Shown here piece after piece: positions 3 to 30,172 of a stretch of DNA of 43,724 nucleotides. Source of the stretch: a virus (Duplodnaviria; Heunggongvirae; Uroviricota; Caudoviricetes). Under the pieces are notes generated by a model, which saw only the letters and a program-made list of their open reading frames with translations, searched no databases and was not told the origin of the DNA. Positions within the stretch are counted from its first letter, which is position 1; every line of letters starts with the position of its first letter. The stretch lies in IMG/VR virus record IMGVR_UViG_2529293015_000003; one strand, 5' to 3'. A program made the translations under genes and the position numbers.

Positions 3-2596
<2,594 letters not shown>

Positions 2597-2597
<1 letters not shown>

Positions 2598-2643: not shown

Positions 2644-3642
2644 TTATCCGTTACCGCGCGACGGTTTCTGCGTGATAAACGTCTCAAGCATCTTTTCCGC
2701 AATTGCCGACCAGGTGTGACACTGGACCTTTTCAGCATTTTTCACGCGATCAACGCGAGCAATAACCTCATCCCAATCAATCCGCGACTTGATAACCATA
2801 TGGTTCACCAAAGCCAAGCGATCTGGCGGAAGGCAATCGGGAGGCGTTAATACCAACGCCCCGCACATTGCCGCCTCAAGAACAGTTAATCCAAGGCTTT
2901 CGGGATGCGTAACGATAAAAACGTCACTCTTACGCAATTCAGCTGCAAATTCGGTTGCTGGCACCGGCGTCCGTCTGTATGGAGTTACCGAAATATTCCC
3001 CGGATCAATGGTAACCAATCCATCATCAGTCAACGTTCTGGCCTCATACGGAAAGGTCAGACGCTGAAGGTTCATAAGGATACTTAAGGAGTGATCAAAA
3101 CCACTAACATCAAATGCAGCGTGGTCTACAAAAATACGCAGAACATCGTCTGTTTTGGTTTCCAGATGGAACAGATCCTGATTCGCTGCCCATCCAACAT
3201 GTTTGTTAAAGCGATTATGACGCTCTAACCTGCCGGGATTATCCAGGTACCGCCAGGTATCATCGCGGACAGTAAAAGTAATATCGACTGGTGCCGAATC
3301 CAGCATAGAACCGTCGTATACCTGGGCTACCCATCCAGTGAATCGACGACGCAGTTGCACGCCTATTTCCTTGGGCACCGTAGTAAAATACCGCAATCCT
3401 GGCGCTAAAATGGCTTTCGCAGAACACGAGGTCGCAGCGGTCAACACAGCTTCAACATAATCCTCCGGGCTTTCGACGCCGGGGGAATATGGACGATGGT
3501 ATTGCAATGTTACCCCGGCCTCACTAAAGGCGCAGGCCAGGTTGTAAGCCCACATTTCCGTATATGTTTTCACATCACTGATAGCTTCAAATTTTCGCCC
3601 AATGATCAGGATGTTCATCGGCTTTTCCTCATTCCATTGCAT
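2644..3642 (-). CDS. GT-B fold glycosyltransferase (GT1/GT4-like)
   Basis: C-terminal FIVTHPESLGLTVLEAAMCGALVLTP matches the E-x7-E nucleotide-sugar-binding motif of retaining GT-B enzymes; ATG overlaps the helicase stop (TAATG). Confidence 0.65.
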   Translation of the reverse strand: MQWNEEKPMNILIIGRKFEAISDVKTYTEMWAYNLACAFSEAGVTLQYHRPYSPGVESPEDYVEAVLTAATSCSAKAILAPGLRYFTTVPKEIGVQLRRRFTGWVAQVYDGSMLDSAPVDITFTVRDDTWRYLDNPGRLERHNRFNKHVGWAANQDLFHLETKTDDVLRIFVDHAAFDVSGFDHSLSILMNLQRLTFPYEARTLTDDGLVTIDPGNISVTPYRRTPVPATEFAAELRKSDVFIVTHPESLGLTVLEAAMCGALVLTPPDCLPPDRLALVNHMVIKSRIDWDEVIARVDRVKNAEKVQCHTWSAIAEKMLETFITQKPSRGNG

Positions 3643-5012
3643 TAATAATCCTCTTGCCAGTCAGCACCAGCATAGTTATCAAACCGTGAGTATTGGCCGT
3701 TAAAAGCCAATCTCACCATGCCAATTGGGCCATTTCGTTGCTTACCGATAATCACCTCGGCAATGCCCTTCATTTCGCTATCCGGGTGATAAACTTCGTC
3801 GCGATACAGAAACATGATCAGGTCTGCGTCCTGCTCAATTGCTCCTGATTCACGTAAATCTGAATTTACCGGTCGTTTGTCCGCACGCTGTTCAAGCGAT
3901 CGATTAAGTTGTGACAATGCCACCACCGGTACTTGTAATTCCTTCGCCAACGCCTTCAGTGAGCGAGAAATCTCGGCAATTTCCAGCGTTCGGTTATCTT
4001 GCAGCTCGGGGACGCGCATAAGTTGCAGGTAGTCGATCATAATCATGCTCAAACCACCATTTTCTTTATAAACACGACGAGCGCGGGAACGTAGCTCTGT
4101 CGGCGTCAGGGCGCTTGAGTCATCAATAAAAATATTCTGCTTGTCCAACAGAATACCCATTGCGCCAGAAACCCGCGCCCAATCATCGTAGTTAAGTTGC
4201 CCCGTTCTAATACGAGTCTGATCAACGCGTGCAAGAGAAGCCAGTGAGCGCATCATCAGCTGGTGGCTCGGCATCTCAAGGCTAAAAACCAATACGGGCT
4301 TATCGTTACGGACTGCGGCATTTTCGACGAGATTCATCGCAAACGTAGTCTTCCCCATCGATGGGCGGGCGGCGACAATGATGAGATCGGACGGCTGAAG
4401 CCCTGCCGTCTTCTTATTGAGATCGGTAAATCCCGTATCAAGCCTCGTTACACCATCATGTGGGCGCTGAAACAACTCTTCTATGCGAGATACCGTTGCA
4501 TCGAGAATGCTGGCGATATCTTTTGGACCACTACCGCTCTTTTGTCGTTTTTCAGCTATTTCAAAAACGCGGCGCTCGGCCATATCCAGCAATTCATTGC
4601 TGCCCCTGCCATCCTGCGCATATCCAGCTTCGGCTATTTCATTTGCGACGGAAATCATTTCACGAACAACCGCGCGTTCACGAACGATATCCGCATAAGC
4701 ACAAATATTTGCCGCGCTGGGCGTGTTCTTTGACATCTCCGCAAGGTACGCAAAACCACCGGCGCGTTCTAATTTACCGTTCTGTTCAAGTGCTTCAGCA
4801 AGTGTTATCAAATCAATCGGTTTGCCATGACTTAATAACCTCTCCATCTCACTGAAAATTTCACGATGAGCACTGGTATAAAAATCATCAGCAACTATAC
4901 GATCTGCCACTTCATCCCAGCGGCAGTTATCAAGCATTAAGCCACCAAGTACAGCTTGTTCTGCACTAAGGGAATTTGGCATGGATTCAAGAGGGGATGC
5001 AGACATTAGCAC
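3642..5012 (-). CDS. ban: DnaB-family replicative DNA helicase (P1 Ban-like)
   Basis: 456 aa with Walker A ARPSMGKTTFAMNL, Walker B/H4 regions (IMIDYLQLM, ALSQLNRSLEQR) and a DnaB N-terminal domain; colinear with DnaB throughout. Confidence 0.9.
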   Translation of the reverse strand: MLMSASPLESMPNSLSAEQAVLGGLMLDNCRWDEVADRIVADDFYTSAHREIFSEMERLLSHGKPIDLITLAEALEQNGKLERAGGFAYLAEMSKNTPSAANICAYADIVRERAVVREMISVANEIAEAGYAQDGRGSNELLDMAERRVFEIAEKRQKSGSGPKDIASILDATVSRIEELFQRPHDGVTRLDTGFTDLNKKTAGLQPSDLIIVAARPSMGKTTFAMNLVENAAVRNDKPVLVFSLEMPSHQLMMRSLASLARVDQTRIRTGQLNYDDWARVSGAMGILLDKQNIFIDDSSALTPTELRSRARRVYKENGGLSMIMIDYLQLMRVPELQDNRTLEIAEISRSLKALAKELQVPVVALSQLNRSLEQRADKRPVNSDLRESGAIEQDADLIMFLYRDEVYHPDSEMKGIAEVIIGKQRNGPIGMVRLAFNGQYSRFDNYAGADWQEDY

Positions 5013-5291: not shown

Positions 5292-5367
5292 TGGTGGCCC
5301 CTACCGGACTTGAACCGGTGACCGTGCGATTATGAGTCGCCAGCTCTAACCACTGAGCTAAAGGGCC
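5292..5367 (-). tRNA. tRNA-Ile2 type, anticodon CAT (lysidine-decoded AUA)
   Basis: 76 nt on the minus strand: GGCCCTT acceptor, D-arm TAGCTCAGTGGTTAGAGC, anticodon loop CTCATAA, T-arm ACCGG-TTCAAGT-CCGGT, encoded CCA; near-identical to E. coli ileX as I recall it. Confidence 0.85.
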
Positions 5368-6330: not shown

Positions 6331-6417
6331 TGGCGGAGAGTAATGGAATCGAACCATCATCGCTTGCGCAACGGGACGGCTTTCAAGACCGCTTGAGCAC
6401 CATGCTCCCTACTCTCC
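6331..6417 (-). tRNA. tRNA-like, class II (long variable arm), anticodon loop CUUGAAA (UGA, Ser-type); non-canonical D-arm
   Basis: 87 nt: perfect 7-bp acceptor GGAGAGT/ACTCTCC, discriminator G, encoded CCA, T-arm GATGG-TTCGATT-CCATT; the anticodon stem needs two G-U pairs and the D-loop is short. Confidence 0.3.
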
Positions 6418-7045: not shown

Positions 7046-7714
7046 ACTTGCCGGGTACGTCTCCGGCGAGGGCTTCCACCTCCGTATGCTTTTCGGCGCA
7101 CCGCGCCCTGGCTGCAATTCGGTAACAGGGGATGCATAACCCTGGCTTCCAGCGTGATTAGCGCCTTCAGCATGACGGGATATACCCGTAGCAAGACGTT
7201 ATTCCTAAATTGCTAAAAGCAATTGCTGTTACGCCGAATGAAAAAGGACGTAACAGGTAAGGACGCTGACCAAAAAGATGGCCCCTTCTCGCTCATCTGG
7301 TTAATCGAACCAGCGCCCTTACCTGTTGTGCCTCCCCGTTCCCTAATACACAGACGGGGACACTCTGCGGTCGATTTTTTGACGGGGGACGACTCATACC
7401 CCGTGGCGTCTGGCTTCTTAGGCCGCTACCATCATCAGATCATCGTTTGCATTTACTTTAATGGTCAGTTTCTAAACCGCCGCAAAGTCGCTAACCATGA
7501 CGAAAACCCTGAAAAAAACGCCCACCCGAAGATGGGCAAACTGGAAGCTCGTAACGCACTTCGGTGTTGCCACTTAGGCGTATGGTCAACCTGGCAACTC
7601 GGCGTCATGATGGGGAAGGAGTCACTACCCCGCCATACTTGCCGCCGCGCCTGTCGCGGCTAACAGCTAAATCGCTCTATAAATCACGATTCATTGAGGC
7701 GATATTACACTAAT

Positions 7715-7731
7715 AAATTTATTAGAGCAAT
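7715..7731 (-). promoter_or_regulatory. C1-repressor-type operator (17/17 match to the P1 consensus ATTGCTCTAATAAATTT on the minus strand)
   Basis: Plus strand reads AAATTTATTAGAGCAAT; overlaps the dmt stop codon (7722-7724). Confidence 0.55.
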
Positions 7732-10700
7732 ATACCTAAAACGTCATGAGCTACACCTCGAGTATCCCCCTTACAAGACACAGAACGTCTGGCAAAAAGA
7801 GGTTCCACTCTGAAGCCACTGTCATGATAAAGCTCTCTGATATTTGGCGCGCCACTGTTAGTAATTAGAACCTTTGCACCTCGGCGATGAGCATCCGTCA
7901 ACAGAGACACCAGGCGTTTTTGCTCTTCAAACTTAAAGTCATGACCGGAATAGTTCGTGAATCCCTCTGTATTTGGGAGCGGTTCATACGGCGGATCGCA
8001 AAAGATGACATCTCCTTCTCCGGCAGCTTCAATCACCGCAGCAAAATCACCACATACAAACTCAGAACGCCCTTCCGCACCAAGGAAGGCTTCCATCTCC
8101 TGCAATGGGAAATACGGAGTTTTATACTTCCCATAACCGACATTGAACTCACCGGCCTGGTTGTAACGCGTCAATCCGTTAAAACAATGTCGGTTCAGGA
8201 ACAAAAACGCCGCTGCGCGATGTAAATCATCATAGACTTGTTTGTTAAACGCATTCCGTACTGCCAGGTATCCTTCCTGTGTGTTGTAGTCCTGGAAGAA
8301 ACGATGTGCCAGAGTGATAAGTGAATGCGCCTCGCGTTGCAGAGTCTTGTAAAAGTTAATCAGGTCAGCATTCACATCATTTAGCAGATTTTCCTGGTAT
8401 CCGGCATTCATGAAGACAGCTCCGCCACCAACGAAAGGTTCAATCAGGCGCTTCCCTTCTGGCAAATAGCGAAAGATTTGTTCCAGAACACCAAATTTTC
8501 CACCAGCCCATTTGAATATGGACCGTTCGAATTCTGCCGCTGGTTTAACTTTTCGCTCTTTTGTTTCACTTCCTTCTTTCTGCCGACATACGGCCTTAGT
8601 AATCCGATCGCCAATCCAGCGCATTACTGGTATTGCCATACTATTGCCGATCGCTTTGTAACGCGGCCCGTCAGCTGCAAGCATCGCGGCCTCTTCTTCG
8701 CTTAAATCTGGATAGTGATTGCGAAGATATGCCAGTTCATCTGAATTAACTTTTTTACGCTTTTCCGTCGGGATCAACGTATGCCCATCAGGAAAACCTT
8801 GCAGCCTTTCACATTCGACAGGGGTAAGACGGCGGACAGCTACTTCTGCGTTTCTTACTTCATAGCAAACAGCTGTTGGATTTTTAGCCATTAGAGATGG
8901 TGAAGTATTCTTAGTTGCAGCATGTTGTGTACCGCTCATACGCTCAGGAAAAGCCAATGTAACAAGATGCTCATGGCTTTCTTGCTCACGTGCCCGCAAT
9001 GTACCATGCCCTTCTGACCAAAAACCTGCTCCTGTGCTGCTAAAAACGGCAAGGTCAGTGGCATCTTTAAAATCTCTTGCCTTTACTGTCGATGCGGTTT
9101 CATCGTCAATATATTCCCCAAATGCTGCCATCCTGAAAGCGTTTACGGCTTTCGTCGATTTCATACCGGGTGGCATGTCAGCGTGTAGGCATGGATTTAG
9201 GCTTTCGCCACTGATTGCAGCGCCATTTGCAATAATGGCGGAAGTGATTTCCTTCTTTTTTCGGCTCGGCGCAATATTCCGGCGCACGCCTTCGAACTCA
9301 AAAAGTACCGTTGCGGGATCGAGGTCTGTTCGAGCACTTGCGACAACAAACACGCGTCGGCGTCGTTGTGCCACTCCGAAGTATTGGGCATCAAGGATTC
9401 TCCAGGCCACTTTTCGCTGCGGTCCATAAATACAACCACACTGCGGCCACTTTGGAGCATGGCAACCGGTTTTGACATCCCACCGCCAGAACGCGTTACT
9501 TTTTCCTGATTCAGGTCGATCACCTGGTTCAAATGGCGCATCTTCTCCAGCCAATCCGGCAAGGAAACATCCGAAGGCGTTATCTGCCGATGACAAGACT
9601 CCTGGGACATTTTCCCAGACGATAACGGATGGTTTGAGAAATGACTCAGCCCGTTTGTCGTCAATTGCATTTGCAAGCTCCACATACTTTAAAGTTAGCG
9701 CGCCACGCTCATCATCAAGCCCACCACGTAATCCAGCGATACTGAATGCCTGACAGTTATGGACCACCGCACCATTGAGGATATAGGAATGATCACCTTC
9801 GACTTCTATGTTGTATACAGTATCTAGGCCTACCGATTTAAACTCTTTGACTGTTCGTAAAAGCATTCCATGAGCCAATCTTGATTTACGTGACAATTTC
9901 TGCGGGCAGATTGTTACCTGATAATAATTCCGTTGATTTACCACGCGATCCTCAATCACTTTTTTGGGCTCAACTTCAATAAAGCTGACCGAAGAAACAT
10001 AACCACAAGTCTGTGACAACTCCGCAACGCCCCAAGCAAGCGCAGGACTAACACTATTAATTCTAAATCCCGCTTTACCACTTGGTGTCCCATCAGTATC
10101 AAGATAGCCTTGTAAAAACACATGACGCAATGGATGCGACATCACCCATGCAGGGATACGCTTAGCATGGCTTAACTCGCCAAAATGTTCATTAAGCCAA
10201 TTGGCATAACACGTATCATTCAAGGTTACTTTGATGCTCCCTCGGATTTCGCTTGCCACGGAAAATATGTTTTCTGGTATGCGGCAATGAAACTTTCTCA
10301 ACTTCTGGCAATTTATGCCAAAAACAACCGCCTTCTTAGATTTACCTTTCCATCTCCTAATATATCCATCGCCAACATAAGCGCCCGCAAGATACATAGC
10401 CTGTTCTTCAGACAAGAACCGAGAACAAATATCTGGAGATGCAATATTGAAATTAGTTAGAGCACACCATTGATATCCCGGCATATCACATGCTGCTCGC
10501 CATTCCGGTTCAGACAACAACTCTCTCTTAAAATATGTGCCATTTTTCCGGGTGTTTTGGGCTTTCCACCGAACCGCCAGGAAGGGATGGTCATTGGTTG
10601 TTCTTATACCTAAAGGCTGCCCAACGGCATTAAGTAACCCCGTATTAGCTATTTTTGAACCAACTCTTTTTACTTGTTGTAACCGCCCGAGATGACTGAC

Positions 10701-11009
10701 TACGTAATCGCCAGGGCAAACATCTTCTATTGGTTTATAACCATTTTTACAAAGAACCATATGCCCCGCGGTAAAACATGGTGTCCCTCCCACCAGCACA
10801 TCAGGGGCTTCAATTTCTCCAGCCTGGACTTTTTGGGCGAGTTTTGTCATGTCGCCAAGGTTGGCGACATGGGGCCAGCGGTGCGCAAGAACGGCAGATG
10901 GAAAAGGCTCTATTTCAGCAAACCACGCCGGACGCATACCCAACGGTTCCCAGGCAATACTCGCGGCTTCAATTCCACTGCAAACAGATCCATAGCACAG
11001 TTCTTTCAC
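7722..11009 (-). CDS. dmt: Bifunctional DNA methyltransferase: N-terminal C5-cytosine MTase (intein-interrupted) fused to C-terminal Dam-like N6-adenine MTase
   Basis: C5 motifs: [10 protein letters not shown] (I), [12 protein letters not shown] (IV, split by the intein), IVWENVPGV (VI), [10 protein letters not shown] (VIII), [17 protein letters not shown] (IX/X). Dam-like C-terminus: [25 protein letters not shown] start overlaps the rdgC stop (GTGA). Confidence 0.85.
9756..10778 (-). mobile_element. Intein (341 codons) with LAGLIDADG homing-endonuclease domain, inserted in the PCQ catalytic motif of the C5-MTase
   Basis: Begins Cys78 (CFTAGHMVL, block A), block [20 protein letters not shown] motifs [10 protein letters not shown] and [10 protein letters not shown], block [13 protein letters not shown], block G NGAVVHN, +1 Cys; excision joins GGTP to CQAFSIAG. 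Confidence 0.85.
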
Positions 11010-30155: not shown

Positions 30156-30172
30156 AAATTTATTAGAGCAAA
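30156..30172 (-). promoter_or_regulatory. C1-repressor-type operator (16/17) upstream of the kilA-like operon
   Basis: Plus strand reads AAATTTATTAGAGCAAA. Confidence 0.5.

Follow-up and report, generated by a model that had tools for sequence, protein, structure and literature searches.

The stretch of DNA analysed here, hereafter the window, comprises 43,724 nucleotides of a tailed virus (Caudoviricetes; IMG/VR record IMGVR_UViG_2529293015_000003) and encodes, directly behind a helicase gene, an open reading frame (ORF) of 332 codons on the minus strand at positions 2644-3642. By sequence, this ORF is the orthologue of phage P1 dbn, a gene already known with a putative annotation. We propose that its product, Dbn, probably belongs, as the GT4-like component, to a phage glycan module of four enzymes, of which the other members would be PmgO, PmgP and PmgQ. 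Genes of these families recur together in P1-like phages, lambdoid phages, coliphages of about 110 kb (EP_H11, IME392), rhizobial myovirus prophages and Xanthomonas/Stenotrophomonas jumbo phages. A link between Dbn and PmgO, PmgP and PmgQ was not found in the literature searched, in which the function of dbn and pmgO-Q was addressed only in two gene tables and one transcriptome remark.

Dbn and its recurrent gene neighbours

Across ban, dbn and gene 5, a stretch of 2.8 kb has an identity of 97.9% to phage P1 and of 98.6% to RCS47, a P1-like phage, and the Dbn protein is 96.7% and 98.8% identical to its counterparts in these phages at 100% coverage. GenBank names the ORF dbn ("downstream of ban") in its P1 record (AF234172) and adds the note "function unknown, possible glycosyltransferase", whereas the same gene is called glt in P7 and annotated as "putative glycosyltransferase, Dbn" in RCS47. 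The original prediction for this locus, made from the letters of the window, knew of no glycosyltransferase at this position in P1; these records correct it. PHROG 2518, a family of unknown function, matches Dbn over residues 1-332 of 332 (E = 1e-238), and the NCBI name for the protein cluster of Dbn is "glycosyltransferase family 4 protein". We assign the window to the RCS47-like branch because its dmt gene contains an intein and it carries an extra tRNA-Ser. The gene and its motif are located as follows:

2644-3642, minus strand: dbn orthologue, 332-aa GT-B (GT4-like) putative glycosyltransferase, counted from the ATG overlapping the ban stop codon
2875-2901, minus strand: E-x7-E motif (E248...E256) inside the invariant block HPESLGLTVLEAA, from family alignments

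The expectation that Dbn is a soluble GT-B protein with an E-x7-E motif was borne out. No membrane-spanning segment was found in Dbn (highest 19-residue Kyte-Doolittle mean 1.53), and an AlphaFold2 (AF2) model with a predicted local distance difference test (pLDDT) value of 89.5 contains two Rossmann-like domains with an inter-domain cleft, the arrangement that characterises GT-B proteins. The motif reads E248-SLGLTVL-E256, lies inside the block VTHPESLGLTVLEAAMCGA, and has both glutamates invariant in 18 family members. The family comprises 378 clusters at E < 1e-3 when 1.84 billion representatives are searched with a profile, and in a 97-member alignment D173, H174, E256 and G261 are invariant, with G150, W151, H246, E248, S249 and G251 conserved in at least 90% of the members. 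When this 97-member profile was searched against the sequences of the PDB, only a 40-residue match around E-x7-E was returned. NCBIfam gave insignificant matches only, and none of the PADLOC defence and counter-defence profiles matched Dbn at E up to 1. Some family members depart from the simple architecture, including P0109 with a C-terminal S-adenosylmethionine (SAM) methyltransferase domain, P0099 with two GT1-type domains and P0090 with an unassigned 218-aa N-terminal extension.

Structural comparison placed Dbn among general GT4 enzymes. The T4 DNA alpha-glucosyltransferase AGT (1y6f) ranks 23rd, behind about 20 ordinary GT4 enzymes, no T4 glucosyltransferase was found by name in the best 50 viral-model matches, and a Tupanvirus glycosyltransferase stands far ahead of all other viral matches (template modelling scores 0.76/0.80, E = 2e-18). 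Neither of the comparisons suggested in the original prediction, with DNA glucosyltransferases and with protein O-glycosyltransferases, thus yielded a preferred relative, and no specific match to protein O- or N-glycosyltransferases stood above the general GT4 hits. We take Dbn to be a soluble, retaining-type GT-B (GT4-like) glycosyltransferase, with catalytic activity predicted from fold and motif.

The gene is under purifying selection, with a dN/dS of approximately 0.12 over 53 alleles from P1-like contigs, an intact ORF in 81 of 83 P1-like loci, and the segment HPESLGLTVLEA identical in all 45 Dbn protein variants from these contigs. Based on this conservation dbn is a real gene, single-base overlaps being in themselves common in operons, and Dbn is probably a maintained and active enzyme. 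A pseudogene reading was considered and ruled out by the dN/dS value and the number of intact frames. The P7 glt gene is annotated as shorter, and tblastn recovers an intact 332-codon frame there.

Searching genome contigs with the family alignment returned three loci; the best 80 loci in viral contigs were all near-identical and P1-like, with about 30 more distant loci outside this group. Among the loci examined, no Dbn homologue outside the P1-like phages had a helicase neighbour. The homologues there are accompanied by glycosyltransferase-like genes and lie within structural or late operons or adjoin them, which undoes the contrast with structural genes drawn in the original prediction. Three partner families recur beside the Dbn-like genes in blastp and hidden Markov model (HMM) searches. 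Two of them are paralogues, each about 200 aa long and weakly matched by Pfam MptE-like, and the third, of about 225 aa, contains a DxD motif. ORFs matched by the PmgO, PmgP and PmgQ family HMMs adjoin the Dbn-like gene in contigs L003, L008, L092, L094 and L100 (phage EP_H11) and lie no more than 7 kb from it in L093 and L095, and PmgO-like and PmgQ-like genes flank the Dbn-like gene in L096, L097 and at least 12 of L182-L205.

All three partners are encoded by P1 (tblastn, whole phage records) and by its relatives RCS47, SJ46, P7 and JL22. The P1 proteins are 37-65% identical to the cassette neighbours (55% for PmgP against the L008 neighbour, 47% for PmgQ, and 37-45% for PmgO against its counterparts), and P1 Dbn is 47-58% identical to the cassette-embedded homologues. 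Within the window, tblastn of the cassette neighbours returned no match because the pmg genes lie outside it, approximately 3.3-6 kb beyond position 1 at the left end; pmgO-Q are predicted in this genome since relatives that are 98% identical carry them.

In EP_H11, L008, L092 and L094 the genes are contiguous and overlapping in the order pmgO-pmgP-(X)-dbn-pmgQ. The P1 order is pmgO-pmgP-ppp-pmgQ; about 6 kb separate these genes from dbn, which lies beyond the convergent tail-baseplate operon 26-25-7-24-6-5. Phages phiNP and JK004 have the order pmgO-pmgP-pmgQ and lack dbn. The slot between pmgP and pmgQ is filled in P1 by ppp, which encodes a lambda-type Ser/Thr phosphatase (L103 2961-3653), and by a dbn homologue in EP_H11 (L100 9001-9969) and the lambdoid L094 (1020-1973). 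This exchange suggests that a gene was replaced and that dbn moved to the ban operon.

The surroundings of the cassette are late or structural in many of these genomes. In the lambdoid contigs L008, L092 and L094 the Dbn-like gene belongs to an overlapping gene run that reads in late-gene direction directly upstream of the terminase, and a similar run contains it in L003, on which no terminase was identified. A Bradyrhizobium prophage (L097) has the order sheath, PmgO-like, 241-aa protein, Dbn-like, PmgQ-like, FkbM methyltransferase, tail tube. At least 12 soil metagenome contigs, of the same lineage of Bradyrhizobium-type and soil myovirus prophages, keep this sheath-tube order while the identity of the Dbn-like protein falls from 82% to 54%; the five-gene cassette lies exactly between sheath and tube in L097 (8597-12260) and in L182, L184-L190, L195, L198, L201 and L202. 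In an Alsobacter prophage (L096) the cassette is interleaved between the major capsid gene, a gene for a 719-aa SPRY/cadherin/LamG protein and the head-tail adaptor gene. In phiNP the module comes after the lysis genes and before terS, in late-gene direction. P1 pmgN-Q, which adjoin the tail-baseplate operon in back-to-back orientation, are preceded by a C1 operator (Oppp) and have the late promoter LPpmgL upstream; dbn, too, has C1 operator sites ahead of it (Oban). One bacterial relative is located in a kps-type capsule cluster (Colwellia) and another near WaaZ-like and GT1 genes. On the 281-kb contig L098 (7190-12395), genes for a GT8-like protein, a nucleotidyltransferase/cupin protein, a GT47-like protein and a polysaccharide pyruvyl transferase are followed by the Dbn-like gene and two further proteins, at least one of them PmgQ-like, and an MptE-like gene lies beside the terminase. 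Some family members (L090, L206-L209) occur away from PmgO/Q-like genes.

Enzymes of the module and their acceptor

The PmgO/PmgP profile aligns with almost the entire domain of Campylobacter jejuni Cst-II, a GT42 sialyltransferase (E = 1e-5), and has further matches in Cst-I, Maf and Lst. The profile of PmgQ matches Gat1, a GT8-like alpha-galactosyltransferase (E = 9e-6), PmgQ relatives give weak Pfam Glyco_transf_8 matches, and PmgQ-like hits occur in Tetraselmis viruses. RefSeq labels PmgO as "alpha-2,3-sialyltransferase" and PmgQ as "glycosyltransferase". In some versions the module also includes an FkbM methyltransferase, a pyruvyl transferase or a nucleotidyltransferase. Judged by profile matches, the module comprises two enzymes of the cytidine monophosphate (CMP)-ulosonic-acid-transferase type, one GT8-like and one GT4-like enzyme, a composition that points to oligosaccharide assembly rather than single-sugar base modification. 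Since PmgO and PmgP are Cst-II/GT42-like, they would use CMP-activated ulosonic acids, such as CMP-3-deoxy-D-manno-octulosonic acid (CMP-Kdo). This is their likely donor in Escherichia coli K-12, which to our knowledge makes no CMP-sialic acid.

We propose that Dbn has no role in replication and catalyses one step of a phage-borne glycan assembly. During lytic growth, together with PmgO and PmgP (Cst-II/GT42-like) and PmgQ (a GT8-like hexosyltransferase), it would assemble a short oligosaccharide in the cytoplasm. DNA is an unlikely acceptor; we judge a phage structural protein, and hence virion glycosylation, most likely, followed by the lipopolysaccharide (LPS) core or a lipid-linked glycan, then a separate host target, with DNA and replication proteins last. 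Structural proteins are ranked first because the cassette has repeatedly been inserted into head, tail and late operons and because the closest viral structure comes from a giant virus; mimiviruses, which are giant viruses, glycosylate their particles. The LPS core is ranked second because of the GT4/GT8/WaaZ-like toolkit, the polysaccharide clusters of the bacterial relatives, and the core-glucose receptor of P1 and phiNP. A P1 dbn orthologue acting in a four-enzyme glycan module, with virion proteins as the likeliest acceptor, is in our view the best explanation overall, in which our confidence stops a little short of even.

Published genetics bear mainly on DNA as an acceptor. In-frame deletions of dbn, pmgO, pmgP and pmgQ in P1 all plaqued normally and showed "normal restriction" on EcoA, EcoB and EcoK hosts, all of them type I systems, on which wild-type P1 itself is restricted 1e-1 to 1e-3 (Gonzales et al. 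2022; PMC9024508, Table S3, Fig. S1). Efficiencies of plating (EOPs) under CRISPR interference (CRISPRi) were 0.7-1.4 for the four genes, and a transcriptome preprint describes dbn as deregulated in an hfq mutant. The original prediction had proposed comparing the restriction of wild-type and knockout phage, and the normal restriction of the dbn deletion on these type I hosts argues against a DNA-protecting sugar. A knockout without phenotype, combined with unmodified DNA, had been named as counting against the prediction; the first part is what was found, plaquing being normal, and on the second the type I systems gave no sign of DNA protection.

We therefore consider it very improbable that Dbn places a sugar on phage DNA against host nucleases, although dbn adjoins the helicase gene and lies 4 kb from the DNA methyltransferase gene dmt. 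Besides the restriction data on the deletion and on unmodified wild-type P1, the anti-restriction of P1 relies on virion Dar proteins, T4 AGT is outranked by ordinary GT4 enzymes, and the homologue cassettes consist of four or five glycosyltransferases with sugar methyl- and pyruvyl-transferases, a composition characteristic of oligosaccharide assembly and not of base modification. Among the P1 parts listed, no hydroxymethyl-pyrimidine or TET-type gene is annotated, although not every ORF of the window was scanned, and we know of none in P1, whose DNA is ordinary Dam-methylated DNA. Of the three substrates originally named, DNA is thus the least supported, and a phage protein and a host envelope component both stay in contention. 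A modification of Ban or another replisome protein, which would account for translational coupling of the two genes, is scarcely credible: it has the one-base overlap with the ban stop in its favour, but among the loci examined no homologue outside the P1-like phages lies beside a helicase, another ORF separates ban and dbn in seven P1-like loci, and both genes are dispensable.

The same enzymes could act on the host envelope, at the cytoplasmic face of the inner membrane, adding Kdo and hexoses to lipid A-core or a lipid-linked glycan so that the outer-core glucose receptor is masked or never made. Lysogens or infected cells would thereby be shielded from superinfection, and progeny would be kept from adhering to debris. 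This reading agrees with the PmgO/P profile matches to the lipooligosaccharide sialyltransferases Cst-II and Lst, with the Pfam MptE-like and WaaZ_KDO_III matches recorded for bacterial cassette neighbours, and with the bacterial homologues in the Colwellia kps-type capsule cluster. The receptor of phiNP, which carries pmgO-P-Q, is GlcII of the LPS core, and that of P1 is LPS core glucose. Over-expression of WaaZ is said to truncate the K-12 outer core, in work attributed to Frirdich et al. in 2003, which we count on the same side. However, in most phages the cassette is co-directional and overlapping with late structural or terminase genes, and in two lineages it lies inside the head or tail operon; this placement predicts late lytic expression, when surface LPS cannot be altered from the cytoplasm. 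The P1 gene sets are also expected to be repressed in lysogens, as they lie behind C1 operators, and only the predicted promoters P1dbn and P2dbn could allow expression. We know of no LPS change in P1 lysogens, and we regard envelope remodelling as rather unlikely.

It is also conceivable, but distinctly improbable, that Dbn has become uncoupled from pmg in P1-like phages and acts alone, early in infection, on a host protein or a small molecule, glycosylating it for takeover or counter-defence. The location of dbn in an early, C1-controlled accessory operon apart from pmgO-Q would fit, as would the family members away from PmgO/Q-like genes (L090, L206-L209) and the modules of phiNP and JK004, whose lack of dbn makes it an optional member. 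However, all four families are kept in P1-like phages, P1 Dbn retains 47-58% identity to its cassette-embedded homologues, and Dbn had neither a PADLOC match nor a specific protein O-/N-glycosyltransferase structural match above the GT4 hits.

Several observations weigh against virion glycosylation by a four-enzyme module. The Pfam Glycos_transf_1 profile scores 25.1 bits against Dbn, under the gathering cut-off of 26.4, and aligns over profile positions 83-169 of 172, leaving its first half unaligned. The physical separation of P1 dbn from pmgO-Q would allow its recruitment to a different job, and the structural-operon placements reflect few independent insertion events, the sheath-tube lineage counting as one. 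A lipid-linked acceptor is favoured by the bacterial relatives in capsule and polysaccharide clusters and by the resemblance of the GT4/GT8/WaaZ-like set to the LPS-core toolkit, and phiNP and P1 both use LPS core glucose as receptor. Since the single knock-outs have no plaquing phenotype, any benefit would be conditional. P1 virions have not been reported to carry a glycan: two P1 cryo-electron microscopy papers and a virion proteome paper contain neither of the words glycan and glycosylation, which is absence of evidence only.

The ban operon and the start codon of dbn

The genes and signals around dbn are as follows:

1965-2597, plus strand: gene 5 orthologue (baseplate hub/needle), last gene of the convergent tail-baseplate operon, from ORF calls and P1 annotation
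2597-2623, unstranded: hairpin between the convergent dbn and gene 5 stops, 11-bp stem, from RNA folding
3616-3618, minus strand: alternative dbn start codon M9, possibly the true start, with a GAGGA Shine-Dalgarno sequence ahead
3640-3644, minus strand: TAATG junction, ban stop and dbn ATG with one common base, from ORF calls and sequence
3642-5012, minus strand: ban orthologue, DnaB-type replicative helicase, 456 aa (Pfam DnaB_C 4.8e-106, DnaB 2.7e-35; P1 annotation)
5292-5367, minus strand: tRNA gene of the ban operon, anticodon CAT, located upstream of ban (tRNA-Ile2 in the P1 record), from a tRNA scan and P1 annotation
7704-7731, unstranded: C1 repressor operator pair (Oban / Op72ab; Obanab in P1) at the head of the ban operon, from a consensus match and the same place in P1

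The ban operon runs from the C1 operators through tRNA genes, tciABC and ban to dbn as its last gene. The window was scanned for C1 sites with a consensus that we take to be ATTGCTCTAATAAATTT, and five matches were found against 0.36 expected by chance. The operator pair combines a perfect match at 7715-7731 (minus strand) with a two-mismatch partner at 7704-7720 (plus strand), overlapping the dmt start; two more one-mismatch sites lie at 12260-12276 and 30156-30172. At the other end, the hairpin at 2597-2623 (-17.6 kcal/mol, z -4.4, equally stable shuffles 0/200) is a probable bidirectional terminator of the ban operon; it was seen by folding and was not flagged by a strict consensus terminator scan. 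The P1 record predicts the internal promoters P1dbn and P2dbn, for which a sigma-70-like scan gave no independent support, finding only one weak site inside ban (4279-4252).

In a P1 CRISPRi screen every ban-operon gene tested was dispensable, ban included, with an EOP of 1.3 for dbn, and we therefore place dbn among accessory genes and not in the replication pathway. The original prediction had dbn co-expressed with a replication gene rather than with structural or LPS genes; co-transcription with ban holds, although the operon is a mixed set of dispensable accessory genes.

As predicted, dbn directly follows the ban-like helicase gene, identified by its DnaB Pfam matches, and its ATG (3642-3640) shares one base with the ban TAA (3644-3642); the minus-strand junction at window positions 3640-3649 reads ...GATTATTAATG. 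The overlap is kept in 76 of 83 P1-like loci (TAATG in 74, TGATG in two), and in the remaining seven an extra ORF of about 100 aa separates ban and dbn, which then starts at the M9-equivalent codon with AAGGAG ahead. M9 (window 3618-3616) is the second ATG of dbn and has its own GAGGA Shine-Dalgarno sequence, and homologues outside the P1-like phages begin at the equivalent position, except P0013 and P0019 with longer called N-termini. The start codon of dbn is thus ambiguous and the ban overlap is not universal; given the Shine-Dalgarno sequence at M9 and the homologue starts, the overlap may not mark the real start. The extra ORF, found for example at L081 5684-6001 and in the IMG/VR contigs L083-L088, encodes a protein beginning MQRKLTKRNKNWLSDML... 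and starts at the same overlapping ATG-CAA that heads P1 dbn. Because of this common start, the first eight codons of P1 dbn may be a remnant of the extra ORF.

Two features of the operon distinguish the window from the P1 reference. The dmt gene (7722-11009, minus strand), for a bifunctional C5/N6 DNA methyltransferase, encodes 1095 aa with an intein-like insert (Hint_2 at aa 77-126, LAGLIDADG_3 at aa 298-361) that splits the C5-methylase catalytic motif (VVHN|CQAFS). The insert is present in RCS47 and vB_EcoM-Ro157c2YLVW and missing from the P1 reference (69% coverage), in which Dmt presumably has 754 aa. A tRNA-Ser gene (anticodon TGA; 6331-6417, minus strand) also lies within the operon; in the matching stretch of the P1 reference the only tRNA genes annotated are tRNA(CAT), tRNA-Thr and tRNA-Asn, with upl and plp.

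Implications and comparison with known systems

The observation at this locus adds nothing new in itself, as the gene is P1 dbn, whose putative annotation and dispensability have been published. The useful new lead is the link of dbn to pmgO, pmgP and pmgQ, which makes four P1 genes without a known role. That Dbn, PmgO, PmgP and PmgQ form an unrecognised and widespread phage pathway placing a Kdo/ulosonic-acid oligosaccharide on virion proteins is a tentative proposal that we consider less likely than not; in a variant of it, the pathway may rewrite the LPS core and remove the phage's own receptor. If true, the pmg genes would gain a function, virion glycosylation would be extended beyond mycobacteriophages and giant viruses, and classic phage P1 would provide the first such system in phages of Gram-negative bacteria. 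A glycan on the P1 virion or LPS can be looked for directly, since the deletion mutants exist (Gonzales et al. 2022).

The Dbn of the window and P1 Dbn (AAQ14048) are the same gene, with the same length, the same position between ban and gene 5 and the same convergent terminator, and show allelic differences only. Compared with CAZy GT4-type retaining GT-B enzymes (sucrose-phosphate synthase, BshA, PimA/PimB, GlgA, WaaG, WaaB), Dbn is only 9-15% identical, is shorter than most at 332 aa, and belongs to a family with its own invariants, GWAA at 150-153 and D173-H174. With the T4 DNA alpha-glucosyltransferase (1y6f) and beta-glucosyltransferase it has in common the GT-B fold and a phage origin. 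The PmgO/PmgP profile match to C. jejuni Cst-II/Cst-I (GT42) covers almost the entire domain; the phage proteins are about 200 aa long and presumably lack the tail by which Cst-II associates with the membrane.

As a set, the module combines the same three classes as the enterobacterial LPS-core enzymes (GT4 WaaG/WaaB, GT8 WaaO/WaaR/WaaJ and the MptE-like Kdo transferase WaaZ), with Dbn as the GT4-like, PmgQ as the GT8-like and PmgO/P as the MptE/Cst-II-like members. However, it has no close sequence relationship to any Waa protein, is phage-borne, usually lies in late or structural operons, and has no reported LPS phenotype. Virion glycosylation cassettes of mycobacteriophages are said to have been described by Freeman et al. 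in 2023. Compared by description with those cassettes and with giant-virus enzymes, the module resembles them as a virus-encoded set of putative glycosyltransferases, often accompanied by a methyltransferase and located beside structural genes.

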